Below are positions 379-6,538 of a DNA stretch of 16,788 nt, piece after piece; the first letter of the stretch is position 1; the number at the start of each line of letters is the position of its first letter. Source of the stretch: a virus (lineage: Duplodnaviria > Heunggongvirae > Uroviricota > Caudoviricetes); IMG/VR virus record IMGVR_UViG_2667528074_000009; one strand, given 5' to 3'. Position numbers and translations under genes: made by a program. A model generated the notes under the pieces. That model worked only from the letters and a program-made list of their open reading frames with translations. It did not search any database and had not been told where the DNA came from.

Positions 379-825
379 ATGAATAAAATGACTGCATTAT
401 TACTTGGCGTAACTATCATTTCAGGTTGTGCATCTTCCGTACCATTGATAAAGAAAACTCAATCAGGAAAACCTGAAGGGATTTATCAAAATACGACAAA
501 AGATAAAGTCAAGGATGCCCTTGTGAATTACTGCAATAGTAAAGGATTGATAATTTACAACGCGGATAACAGCAGTGTTATATGTGGTAAAGAACTGGAA
601 GGTGGCTCTGCTGTTCTTGGACAAATGCTAATCGGGAATGCCTATTCAACAACCCCGGTATCAAAAGTCAGATTTACTATCGCTCAAGTTAATACCGATA
701 CAAAAGTATGGGCCGATATGTGGATGGAAACTCAAATGGCAATGGGGCAAGTACAACAAATGGCTATAACAGATAATGCAAGTAAAAACACTATCCAACA
801 ACGTCTTGATGAATTAAAACCTTAA
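379..825 (+). CDS. Putative lipoprotein (moron), 148 aa
   Basis: N-terminus MNKMTALLLGVTIISGC has a hydrophobic signal peptide ending in a lipobox-like ISGC with Cys at the cleavage position. The gene is visibly lower in GC than its neighbours and is oriented against the surrounding minus-strand phage genes. Confidence 0.65.
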   Translation: MNKMTALLLGVTIISGCASSVPLIKKTQSGKPEGIYQNTTKDKVKDALVNYCNSKGLIIYNADNSSVICGKELEGGSAVLGQMLIGNAYSTTPVSKVRFTIAQVNTDTKVWADMWMETQMAMGQVQQMAITDNASKNTIQQRLDELKP

Positions 826-912: not shown

Positions 913-1281
913 CTAACGATCCATCTCTAGCTCAACTTCTAACATCATCAACATGCCGTCAACTATCCCTTCAGCCTTTTGCAACAAACGGCCAACCCAG
1001 CAATCCGAACGACCATGCTTTCGTGCTAGCGCCATAAACGTCATGCCCGCCACGTAATAATCTACCAGCAAATCGTGTAATTCTTTGTTGTTCTTATTCA
1101 ACCGGGCCATACAGCCACAAATGATCATTGCGTCATCGTCGGAACATTGCGGACGCGATTTAACTTTCGACGGTATTAATCCTTTAAAGCCAGCAGCAAT
1201 CGATGGCCATGTGACATCCTCATGATTATTTGCCACCCACGCTCCCCAACGCTCAAGAACCATCTGAATATCACGTGCCAT
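913..1281 (-). CDS. Late-gene antitermination protein Q (short QuuD-like type)
   Basis: [25 protein letters not shown]...[16 protein letters not shown] matches the short Q antiterminator family from memory, including the Cys-rich motif. Sits directly after rusA as in DLP12-type nin regions. Start taken as ATG 1281 (AGGTGG RBS); the ORF track's earlier start at 1290 is GTG. Confidence 0.8.
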
Positions 1282-1642
1282 CGTTACCACCTGTAATTTC
1301 GTAAATCTTCACGCCCAGCCGACCACCAGGTACAAGCTGACTGCGCACAATATTAATTTCATCAAACTGCTCGTCGTCGATAAGCAGTCCCGCATGTGTC
1401 AGTGCATCCAGTGGCGCTTTCAGGATATTGTCCAGGTCTCGACGACGCTTATCCGGCGGCTCTGCGATAACCGTTATCGCCAGCCTTCCGGACAGGTTTA
1501 ATTTCAGCCTCTACTGGCGAACAATAAGTGCCACATCACGGCGATAACGCTTACCGGCTTCCGATATAAAATATGTGCTGCCACGGCGTCGCCAGTAGGT
1601 GTTCACCGTCGGCGGGTAAGGCAAAACAAACTCTATACGCAT
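1271..1642 (-). pseudogene. rusA: rusA Holliday-junction resolvase homolog interrupted by an in-frame amber codon
   Basis: Minus-strand frame from ATG 1642 reads MRIEFVLPYPPTVNTYWRRRGSTYFISEAGKRYRRDVALIVRQ, then TAG at 1513..1511 (codon 44), then continues stop-free as [79 protein letters not shown] to TGA 1273..1271. The DKRRRDLDN and LDDxQ segments are RusA signatures. Absent from the ORF track because the N-terminal piece is under 60 aa and the C-terminal piece has no Met. Confidence 0.75.
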
Positions 1643-1654
1643 CAGTAACCTCTT

Positions 1655-2704
1655 TTATCCGAGTACGCCAGTTGCAAAGGCGTGATCAAGAAAACGAAAA
1701 ATTAAATCAACCTGAGAACCATGCTTTTCTTCGAACGCCTGCGGATCTGCATGAAGTTCGTTGTGATGTTCCCGGCACAGCGGCAACGTAAAAATATCGT
1801 GGGCTTTTGTCCCCATTCCGCCCTGACCGTGACCAATCAGGTGATGTGGATCGTCTGCTGTCTTACCACAACACGTACACGGCTGTGTCTTTACCCAGCG
1901 CGTGTATTTCTCATTCACCCAGCGGCGACGTTTAGGCCGCTTCATGAATGATTCCGGTGACTCAGGATCAACGGCAATGCTGACCACCGTCTTTTCCTGT
2001 GGTGGGTTCTGTTGCTGGTGGGCTAGAGGCGGTAGCGCAATATTTTTTGTGCGCTGCTTCAGTATGCTGGTGGCTGTCTGCTCTCCCGGTACGATGTCGC
2101 TCTCGCGGTACACAGAGCGGATTTTTTCCGTACGTAATCCCAACGAACGACGTAATACTGCCTCCGGTAGCGCGTCCGCCACCTGATTGCAGACCGCCCA
2201 CCAGGATAACTCAGCCAGCGATAATTCCCGCTCTTGCGTACCATTCATTGCATGGCGTATGACGTCAATCATCCATGCTGTCAGATTTTGTTGAGCAAGC
2301 TGCCCGAGTGATTCGGATGTCTGGTCGCGCAGCTGGTTGTCGCAGTGCCAGCACAACACCATTGCGCCGGTACCGTAACGATGTATGACGGTTTCACTGT
2401 GGTGATAGTCTCCATGAGGCCACTGGCAGGATTTAACATGACGCAGGAGCCAGTCAGACAGTGCACCAGTGCCACCGGCAGCACGAATTACCCGCTCATT
2501 GCTGAAAAATGGCAGTAATGATTTATCTTCCGCCAGCGGCTGGCGAACGGCAGGGACGGCTCCGGACGGCAGACCGCGCATACTTTTCGGTTCCGGCTCC
2601 ACCAGCACTCGAGGGCTATGAAATACCTGCATGGATTCACGGCCCGGCTTTAGCACCACCAGTCCGAGTTCCGGTACCAGGGCAGGTCGAACTAATACCC
2701 GCAC
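1655..2704 (-). CDS. ydfU: DUF968-family protein (YdfU-like), 349 aa
   Basis: 349-aa ORF matching the length of the Qin YdfU protein, with a C-terminal Cys/His-rich region (CTCCGK...HHLIGHGQGG...CREHH). GTG start at 2704 preceded by GGAGG at 5-nt spacing. Confidence 0.75.
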   Translation of the reverse strand: MRVLVRPALVPELGLVVLKPGRESMQVFHSPRVLVEPEPKSMRGLPSGAVPAVRQPLAEDKSLLPFFSNERVIRAAGGTGALSDWLLRHVKSCQWPHGDYHHSETVIHRYGTGAMVLCWHCDNQLRDQTSESLGQLAQQNLTAWMIDVIRHAMNGTQERELSLAELSWWAVCNQVADALPEAVLRRSLGLRTEKIRSVYRESDIVPGEQTATSILKQRTKNIALPPLAHQQQNPPQEKTVVSIAVDPESPESFMKRPKRRRWVNEKYTRWVKTQPCTCCGKTADDPHHLIGHGQGGMGTKAHDIFTLPLCREHHNELHADPQAFEEKHGSQVDLIFRFLDHAFATGVLG

Positions 2705-3054: not shown

Positions 3055-3080
3055 AAAAACCCGCCGAAGCGGGTTTTCAT
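3055..3080. terminator. Bidirectional intrinsic terminator; copy 1 of a 21-bp direct repeat
   Basis: AAAAA-CCCGC-cgaa-GCGGG-TTTT; T-tract on plus, A-tract giving a T-run on minus. Lies 12 nt downstream of the Doc stop on the minus strand. The 21 bp at 3055-3075 are identical to 3904-3924. Confidence 0.6.
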
Positions 3081-3091
3081 TGGAAGCACCT

Positions 3092-3577
3092 TTAGTTTTG
3101 CTGTTCTATTTTAAGCTTGATAGTTTCATACAAAACAATAGTTGCGCCTGTTTTACATAATTCCCGGCTGTCATACGCACGAGACCAATAACACAACCAG
3201 TTCTCGAGATCTTCTCGAGTATAGGTTTTGCAGGCCAGTCCCTCTGCCATTTCCACGATTTCATCGCCTGGTGCTGTTAACTCATAGCCATTCAACAACA
3301 AGAAGACGTAACCAGCCATCATAGCTGTTCGTTTGTTCGCATTAGCAAACGGATGATTCTGAATCAGACTTTCAATCAATACCGATGCCAGTACAAACAT
3401 GTCATTGATCTGTTCATACCATCGAACCATGCTGGGACGGGCCTGAGAAGAACTTAAGTTATCTGGACTCAGAACACCAACGGGCTCATCTGGCGTCTGT
3501 AATTCAATTAGGGAACGATTGATTTCAACAAGATCATCAACCGTAAGGTAATGCACACCTTCAACAATCTCAGCCAT
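3092..3577 (-). CDS. doc: Doc/Fic-family toxin (death-on-curing-like), 161 aa
   Basis: Contains HPFANANKRTAM, matching the Doc variant of the Fic motif (P1 Doc has HIFNDANKRTAL). Preceded 20 nt upstream by a small antitoxin-sized gene. Confidence 0.8.
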   Translation of the reverse strand: MAEIVEGVHYLTVDDLVEINRSLIELQTPDEPVGVLSPDNLSSSQARPSMVRWYEQINDMFVLASVLIESLIQNHPFANANKRTAMMAGYVFLLLNGYELTAPGDEIVEMAEGLACKTYTREDLENWLCYWSRAYDSRELCKTGATIVLYETIKLKIEQQN

Positions 3578-3992: not shown

Positions 3993-4148
3993 TTACTCCT
4001 CAGGTTCGTAAGCTGTGAAGACAGCGACCTCCGTCTGGCCGGTTCGGATTCGTACCTCGCAGAGGTCTTTCCTCGTTACCAGTGCCGTCACTATGACGGT
4101 TAAACAGATGACGATCAGGGCGATTAACATCGCCTTTTGCTGCTTCAT
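3993..4148 (-). CDS. hokD: Hok/Gef-family type I toxin (HokD/RelF-like), 51 aa
   Basis: Translation MKQQKAMLIALIVICLTVIVTALVTRKDLCEVRIRTGQTEVAVFTAYEPEE matches the HokD/RelF sequence as I recall it. GGAG RBS upstream of ATG 4148; stop TAA 3995..3993. Missing from the ORF track because it is under 60 aa. Confidence 0.9.
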   Translation of the reverse strand: MKQQKAMLIALIVICLTVIVTALVTRKDLCEVRIRTGQTEVAVFTAYEPEE

Positions 4149-4206
4149 AGCCTGCTTCTCCTTGACCTTTCGGTCCGTAAGAGGCTAACCTATGTTTGTG
4201 TGGCAT
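4000..4206 (-). CDS. mok: mok-like overlapping reading frame (68 codons)
   Basis: A 68-codon ORF starts upstream of hok and overlaps it almost entirely in another frame, the arrangement of mok in hok/mok/sok loci. Coding status inferred from position only. Confidence 0.45.
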   Translation of the reverse strand: MPHKHRLASYGPKGQGEAGYEAAKGDVNRPDRHLFNRHSDGTGNEERPLRGTNPNRPDGGRCLHSLRT

Positions 4207-4260
4207 AGATTGGGCCTCAGATTAATGTTAAGCGTCCTGCAAGACGCGTAATGTTAACTG
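4185..4260 (+). ncRNA. sok: Possible Sok-like antisense RNA (approximate, unverified)
   Basis: In hok/mok/sok loci Sok is antisense to the mok translation-initiation region, which here is around 4200. A TTGACC -35-like hexamer lies at 4162-4167 and an imperfect hairpin at 4233-4248. Boundaries are guesses. Confidence 0.2.
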
Positions 4261-4486
4261 GGGCTTTTCTCTGTCTGCCTTACAGTGGCATGCCCGAGGC
4301 AGACAGCCTCAAGCACCCGCAGCAATCTTACCGACACCGATAAGAAAACGCTATTTTTTATTGCCAGCACCATCTATCCAGGCTAATTTATCTGCGTCAG
4401 AACGGCGCAATGCGCTCGCCTGAGATACGTTTACTTGTCATTGGTAACAACAGATAACGGCAATTGTTGTTTCTGTTTTGTTTCCT

Positions 4487-5850: not shown

Positions 5851-6207
5851 TTATTCTGGGCTAAGTTTTGTCGCCCTGCGTATTCGCGCTTTCACATTAC
5901 GCTCAATCTGAATTAGCTTTTCTATATTTTTACGTCTTTCCCGTTCCTCCTGACGCAATTGTTTTACATCATCTGCCAGTCTGGTTTCTCTTTTCGCCAC
6001 AGAGAGCATCCAGTCAAATGGCTCCACAACTGCACCGCAGATTTTACAACGGACATGACGCTCTTTTTCATCAACCCTGACAGAGGCGTGATGGCAATAT
6101 GGTTTTTCCGATGGCTCATAAAGAAAATTAACCTGATTACGTGGGTCATCCTCTTTTACCGGAAATAAAACAATATTACTTAACTCATCTTCTGGTTTTA
6201 TTTCCAC
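5851..6207 (-). CDS. Hypothetical protein with zinc-ribbon-like motif and basic C-terminal helix (about 118 aa)
   Basis: GTG start at 6207 with GGAGGGAGG RBS at 5-nt spacing embedded in the upstream gene's last codons; CHHASVRVDEKERHVRCKICG motif; C-terminal K/R/E-rich helix. The longer ORF-track start would overlap the upstream gene by about 75 nt. Confidence 0.5.
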   Translation of the reverse strand: MEIKPEDELSNIVLFPVKEDDPRNQVNFLYEPSEKPYCHHASVRVDEKERHVRCKICGAVVEPFDWMLSVAKRETRLADDVKQLRQEERERRKNIEKLIQIERNVKARIRRATKLSPE

Positions 6208-6208
6208 G

Positions 6209-6538
6209 TTACCTCCCTCCGATACGAATACCTGCAACACGCAGTGCATGCTCCAAATCAGCCAGATAAAGCCAGCGCCCATGCTCTTTGGGCATCATGA
6301 CATATTGCTCATCGGCATTTATCGGATGACCCCTTCGAAGGTCATAGCAAGTCGGTAAATGCACTGCCCTTGCTTCCAGCTCTGCAATGCGTTTATCTCT
6401 GGCTTCCAGTTCGTCCAGTAACGCCAGCACAACCTGCGGTGTGACTTTCATGCGAAACGCCAGCAGTTTCTGAGGTGTGGACACTGTTTTTATTGCCTCT
6501 GCCACATCACGCAACGCCTGGTTGTTAATCTGATTCAC
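6209..6538 (-). CDS. Hypothetical phage protein, possibly Ead/Ea22-like (109 aa)
   Basis: N-terminal QALRDVAEA followed by a coiled-coil LLDELEARDKRIAELEAR segment, resembling Ead/Ea22-like prophage proteins from memory. GTG start overlaps the upstream stop (GTGA). Confidence 0.45.
   Translation of the reverse strand: MNQINNQALRDVAEAIKTVSTPQKLLAFRMKVTPQVVLALLDELEARDKRIAELEARAVHLPTCYDLRRGHPINADEQYVMMPKEHGRWLYLADLEHALRVAGIRIGGR

Follow-up and report, generated by a model that had tools for sequence, protein, structure and literature searches.

Junction nucleases encoded upstream of the antiterminator gene Q in lambdoid phages, among them Rap/NinG and RusA, are accessory. The RusA of E. coli K-12, from the DLP12 prophage (PDB 1q8r, 2h8c/2h8e), is of the same family and length class as the prophage rusA described here, and the RRRDLDN...K...DD catalytic motif is common to both. 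Residues D70, D72, K76 and D90/D91 of the E. coli enzyme are critical for cleavage (PMC1636454). The gene considered here is of a different subtype, one that is common in prophages with a DUF968-rusA-Q arrangement, and whereas the K-12 gene is an intact open reading frame, this one stops at codon 44 and leaves a stub of 43 amino acids. Nearer relatives are rusA genes that remain intact in lambdoid prophages and phages of E. coli (for example WP_072656505.1 of strain 2D, WP_001217436.1 of O157:H7, and phage Evi), which are 89-93% identical to it in DNA and have the same DUF968-rusA-Q order and the same 11-nt overlap of rusA with Q. Unlike the gene described here, which has TAG at codon 44, they encode CAG at that position and are annotated as functional.

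The rusA frame and its amber codon

The window, meaning the whole stretch of viral DNA analysed (16,788 nt; IMG/VR record IMGVR_UViG_2667528074_000009), contains the following features at the rusA locus.

1271..1642, minus strand: predicted rusA pseudogene, a 123-codon RusA frame plus TGA with a single break at codon 44 (translation, Pfam and PDB match)
1511..1513, minus strand: amber codon TAG, codon 44, where all intact homologs examined have CAG (Gln) (homolog alignments)
1511..1642, minus strand: N-terminal stub of 43 amino acids, the sole translatable product, without the active site (ORF list)
1373..1438, minus strand: codons of the catalytic residues D69, D71, K75, D89 and D90 (alignment to 1q8r)

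The frame opens with ATG at 1642..1640, runs through 43 sense codons to TAG at 1513..1511, continues for 79 sense codons and closes with TGA at 1273..1271, and translation of 1642..1271 gave no in-frame stop other than the TAG at codon 44. An earlier note on this DNA had described a RusA frame intact apart from one TAG at codon 44 of 123, and its coordinates, strand and codon number were all right. It had also held that both flanks stay in frame and resemble RusA, which the read-through protein bears out: with Gln at codon 44 it scored 59.9 bits (E 4.8e-16) against Pfam RusA (PF05866; cut-off 22.8 bits), and its residues 5-116 aligned to E. coli RusA 1q8r (phmmer, E 3.5e-22). The family call was checked on the segment 3' of the stop, and these 79 C-terminal residues matched RusA by themselves at 32.7 bits (E 1.3e-07), above the cut-off; the 43 N-terminal residues alone scored 18.3 bits (E 0.0037), below it.

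In the alignment to 1q8r, D69, D71, K75 and D89/D90 correspond to D70, D72, K76 and D90/D91 of the E. coli enzyme, and every one of these codons (1438..1373) is placed 3' of the amber codon. The uninterrupted frame that would give a full RusA protein is thus broken by the TAG at codon 44, and none of the in-frame restart codons after it, in translation and in the ORF list, yields more than about 25 amino acids. Because the catalytic residues all follow the stop and there is no useful restart, we infer an inactive stub and a null amber allele. Read from its sequence, the locus is a pseudogene of the RusA family and not a working member. The mechanical ORF list gives the 43-aa stub (1511..1642) as the only entry at the rusA locus, and the same stub is annotated as a gene in three sister assemblies (L007, L019 and L020) and was also found in a large protein collection. 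The stub's protein cluster also includes a 412-aa sequence, an unrelated transposase that was rejected as a clustering artefact.

The earlier note had left open which sense codon the TAG replaced, and the answer from every intact homolog examined was CAG (Gln). Codon-by-codon alignment placed CAG at codon 44 in E. coli 2D, C311 and O157:H7 H6437, and six further full-length homologs, from E. coli ECMA0423, Shigella flexneri and E. albertii, also had Gln (CAG) there. A sister allele (L014; GCA_050048895.1), 99.5% identical and annotated as intact RusA, carries CAG at codon 44 together with T82I. Since CAG occupies codon 44 in every intact homolog examined, the lesion is a single C>T transition at 1513, from Gln44 CAG to amber TAG. 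The exact ancestor, with CAG and Thr82, was absent from the protein collection, so that the direction from CAG to TAG rests on the outgroups and the L014 allele. A Dcm (CCWGG) deamination hotspot was ruled out as the cause of the transition, there being no such site at codon 44. No stop at codon 44 was seen among the homologs examined outside the young amber lineage. The E. coli genomes that we fetched carry DUF968-rusA-Q with an intact 123-aa "RusA family crossover junction endodeoxyribonuclease", and the same DUF968, rusA and Q annotations appear under the matches listed for many more E. coli genomes.

The amber allele in sister prophages

Sister loci were gathered from public assemblies by looking for proteins identical to the neighbouring DUF968 and Q products, which gave 18 loci in 12 assemblies. 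The 372-nt rusA was identical to that of the window, TAG included, at 15 of the 18 loci, and two others had the TAG with one additional nonsynonymous change, L7F (L008) or R42C (L020), leaving L014 as the one locus with CAG. Among the 12 sampled assemblies that have this module, 11 are thus amber carriers. The amber prophages fall into at least five haplotypes, which differ by scattered SNPs and by a recombined patch at 6040-6229, where about 20 haplotype-distinguishing SNPs are clustered, apparently through gene conversion or recombination. The hosts differ too: over 10 kb, the chromosome flanks of two amber carriers are about 1% divergent, and a third carrier has a mobile island inserted beside mtfA. 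In one carrier strain (L069, 12415-20992; GCA_018456385.1) an integrative element encoding an integrase, a shufflon, a PilS-like pilin, TraD and MobA lies beside mtfA, and the window's strain has yeeJ directly at that place.

The allele lineage is rare. Among 5,426 complete E. coli genomes the prophage variant itself was absent, the best matches reaching 88-93% identity, and deposited phages and plasmids held homologs of at most 92% identity. Neither the TAG nor the CAG allele lineage was present in the IMG/VR and JGI metagenome contigs scanned or in species-representative genomes. In the large protein collection 14 contigs encoded the exact Q protein, 12 the exact DUF968 protein and three the intact L014 RusA. 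No relevant report of a natural rusA amber allele came up in a literature search.

Prophage context and the neighbouring Q gene

Four further features on the same strand define the surroundings of rusA.

913..1281, minus strand: antiterminator Q (Pfam Phage_antitermQ, E 1.6e-50), ending in TAG
1655..2704, minus strand: DUF968 (YdfU-like) gene (Pfam DUF968, E 7.6e-78), in the same operon as rusA
3993-4148, minus strand: hok (HOK_GEF)
4146-4318, minus strand: sok RNA (Rfam RF01794, 109 bits)

The order along the minus strand is hok with sok RNA, a Fic/DOC gene, a strong intrinsic terminator, a small gene, DUF968, rusA and Q. A hairpin like that of an intrinsic terminator, with a 10-bp GC-rich stem followed by a T run, occupies 3055-3078 on the minus strand, directly behind the Fic/DOC gene (3092-3577) and ahead of DUF968-rusA-Q. 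To cover rusA and Q, transcription would presumably have to pass it by antitermination or start from a separate promoter. The DUF968 gene stops 13 nt before the start of rusA, and the C-terminus of its product is HNH-like, with a weak HNHc_6 match that falls under the cut-off. The hok and sok genes make up a complete type I toxin-antitoxin module inside the early-right region of the prophage. Between Q and the late region, an ORF of 148 amino acids (379-825, plus strand) carries a lipoprotein-type signal (…LLGVTIISGC…) and is kept in all sister loci, where its copies have no Pfam family on record; it is probably a lysogenic-conversion "moron" gene.

Further along, the prophage carries immunity genes of the YdaT/YdaS type together with genes for DicB, a RecE-like exonuclease and an integrase. 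The sequence past the integrase, with mtfA, tRNA-Asn and yeeJ, matches E. coli chromosomes at 100% identity. This is a lambdoid prophage with immunity of the Rac/Qin kind, and its integration site in E. coli adjoins mtfA/tRNA-Asn. A host other than E. coli, suggested by the modest identity to complete E. coli genomes, was rejected because the chromosomal flank is 100% E. coli.

Q overlaps the 3' end of rusA by 11 nt, with its ATG at 1281 and its own Shine-Dalgarno sequence, AGGTGG, at 1292..1287, 5 nt before the ATG. An RNA structure that would mask the Q start when rusA is untranslated was rejected, as the fold was no better than that of shuffled sequences (z 0.59). The 229-nt stretch left untranslated after the amber codon is G-rich (C/G 0.5-1.0) and not C-rich as Rho loading sites are, and Rho-dependent polarity on Q was rejected on this ground. 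With its own Shine-Dalgarno sequence, no masking structure and a G-rich untranslated stretch upstream, Q would be little affected in its expression, and a strong polar effect is not predicted. Sixteen nucleotides after the Q stop, in the expected late promoter or Q-utilisation region, lies a homopolymer of nine G on the minus strand (C9 on the plus strand, 889-897), whose length varies among sister prophages (columns 896-898) and which could be slippage-prone or sequencing-sensitive.

Age of the allele and competing explanations

Against intact orthologs, dN/dS was 0.22-0.41 for the part of rusA before the stop and 0.11-0.15 for the part after it, and no further stops or frameshifts were found in the gene beyond the amber codon. 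The low ratio after the stop and the lack of other lesions indicate that the mutation is recent; the segment 3' of the stop reads as one shaped by purifying selection that has had no time yet to decay. The window, L014 and L020 share a near-identical module of about 1.9 kb, which runs from the 3' part of DUF968 through rusA and Q to the lipoprotein gene downstream and in which the amber counts among only a few SNPs. Upstream of about 1900 both L014 and L020 are 5-10% divergent from the window, placing a mosaic breakpoint inside the DUF968 gene (1655-2704), that is, recombination within coding sequence. L020 thus has the amber in a background whose upstream part is 5-10% divergent, which makes two mosaic backgrounds in all, and the young allele has already moved into both of them and into several strains. 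Two new rusA changes have arisen among the amber haplotypes (L7F and R42C), both nonsynonymous and too few for a test of excess.

We consider it most probable (about 0.87) that this rusA represents a real and recent loss of function, an ordinary young nonsense pseudogene that is segregating in an accessory gene of a lambdoid prophage. The earlier note had listed a recent nonsense pseudogene among its options, and CAG in the orthologs, the absence of decay after the stop and the dN/dS of 0.11-0.15 all support it. The C>T change turned Gln codon 44 from CAG to TAG, so that translation now ends after 43 residues and before the catalytic residues, and no active Holliday-junction resolvase would be made, apart from trace natural read-through. 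The prophage would tolerate the loss because lambdoid junction nucleases such as this rusA, in the region upstream of Q, are accessory, and the null allele would persist and segregate in a small prophage lineage beside its intact CAG sister allele. Loss of RusA is therefore likely to be nearly neutral. The presence of the amber in 11 of 12 assemblies may exceed neutral drift, but recent spread of one phage lineage is equally expected to produce it.

Sequencing or assembly error, with a true CAG at codon 44 and an intact gene, was another option in the earlier note, and the TAG is indeed a single-base difference from the L014 sister allele. The same TAG allele, however, occurs in 11 independently produced assemblies from different submitters, accession series, haplotypes and host strains, position 1513 is outside any homopolymer, and the window is 100% identical to LIQA01000029.1 (assembly GCA_001413995.1) over 13.7 kb, so that this option is refuted for practical purposes and we give it almost no weight. 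Adaptive inactivation, in which the stop was selected because it removes a nuclease harmful at partial derepression or lowers Q through loss of coupling or polarity, could draw on the frequency of the amber among the assemblies sampled with the module, its two mosaic backgrounds and the 11-nt overlap of Q with the end of rusA. We nevertheless regard it as unlikely: Q has a good Shine-Dalgarno sequence 5 nt before its ATG that is unmasked by structure, the 229-nt G-rich stretch is unlike Rho loading sites, the allele counts come from one sampled young lineage and are not independent events, and thousands of E. coli prophages keep rusA, intact in all those examined.

The remaining alternatives keep some RusA in production. 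A Gln-inserting amber suppressor such as supE (tRNA-Gln) would restore the exact wild-type RusA, and natural near-cognate UAG read-through would give wild-type protein at trace level. That rusA is kept functional by amber suppression or programmed read-through, in suppressor hosts or at a low tuned level, would accord with the perfectly preserved frame after the stop, with a lost CAG codon that suppression of the tRNA-Gln type returns to Gln, and with the A that follows the TAG, a context in which supE suppression is reported to be favoured. Youth explains the preserved frame equally well, given how few SNPs there are across the 1.9-kb module, and a stop at codon 44 is found in no other homolog examined, while both extra changes in amber alleles are nonsynonymous, which fits relaxed constraint (n = 2). 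ARAGORN found no tRNA genes in the window, and in sister loci extended past Q it found tRNA-Gly(UCC) alone, in 11 of the 16 loci scanned; a phage-encoded suppressor tRNA was rejected on these grounds. This tRNA gene lies downstream of Q, outside the window, between the DNA methyltransferase and holin genes (8216-8288 in L004, 6790-6862 in L014). TAG is also the genuine terminator of the adjacent Q (915..913) and of the repressor gene, for which reason recoding of TAG was rejected; of the two signs by which recoding would be recognised, a conserved in-frame stop and either a nearby suppressor tRNA or a TAG unused as terminator, neither was found. The option of expression in amber-suppressor hosts, also raised in the earlier note, thus goes unsupported, and we judge the reading as a whole highly improbable. 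A related proposal, that the amber is maintained as a "leaky" allele which supplies trace RusA through tRNA-Gln read-through of UAG or tunes the overlapping Q, would explain both its majority status in the lineage and its two mosaic backgrounds; it seems very unlikely, and if true would add a modest case of dosage control by natural amber read-through.

In annotation the locus should appear as a rusA pseudogene with an internal stop, and should be neither omitted nor listed as a 43-aa hypothetical protein. Because the amber is already in two mosaic backgrounds and several strains, the RusA-less phage or prophage is transmissible, or at least recombines freely. A lineage of lambdoid prophages can therefore spread from one E. 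coli strain to another without the RusA resolvase, in keeping with the dispensability already known for junction nucleases from the region upstream of Q. The importance of the finding beyond annotation is small.

Two further systems bear comparison. Lambda Rap (NinG) occupies the same niche as rusA here, in the nin region just upstream of Q, and has a similarly dispensable role in phage recombination, but it is unrelated to RusA in fold and family. Its closer analogue in this prophage may be the neighbouring DUF968 protein, as its weak HNH-like motif hints, and one might speculate that the DUF968 protein overlaps RusA in function. The laboratory amber alleles of lambdoid phage genes, the conditional mutants used with supE and supF, resemble rusA here in being single CAG to TAG changes that a Gln-inserting suppressor would fully correct. 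They differ from it in that the rusA TAG is a natural allele, found in wild E. coli isolates and in a non-essential gene, with no sign of a suppressor.
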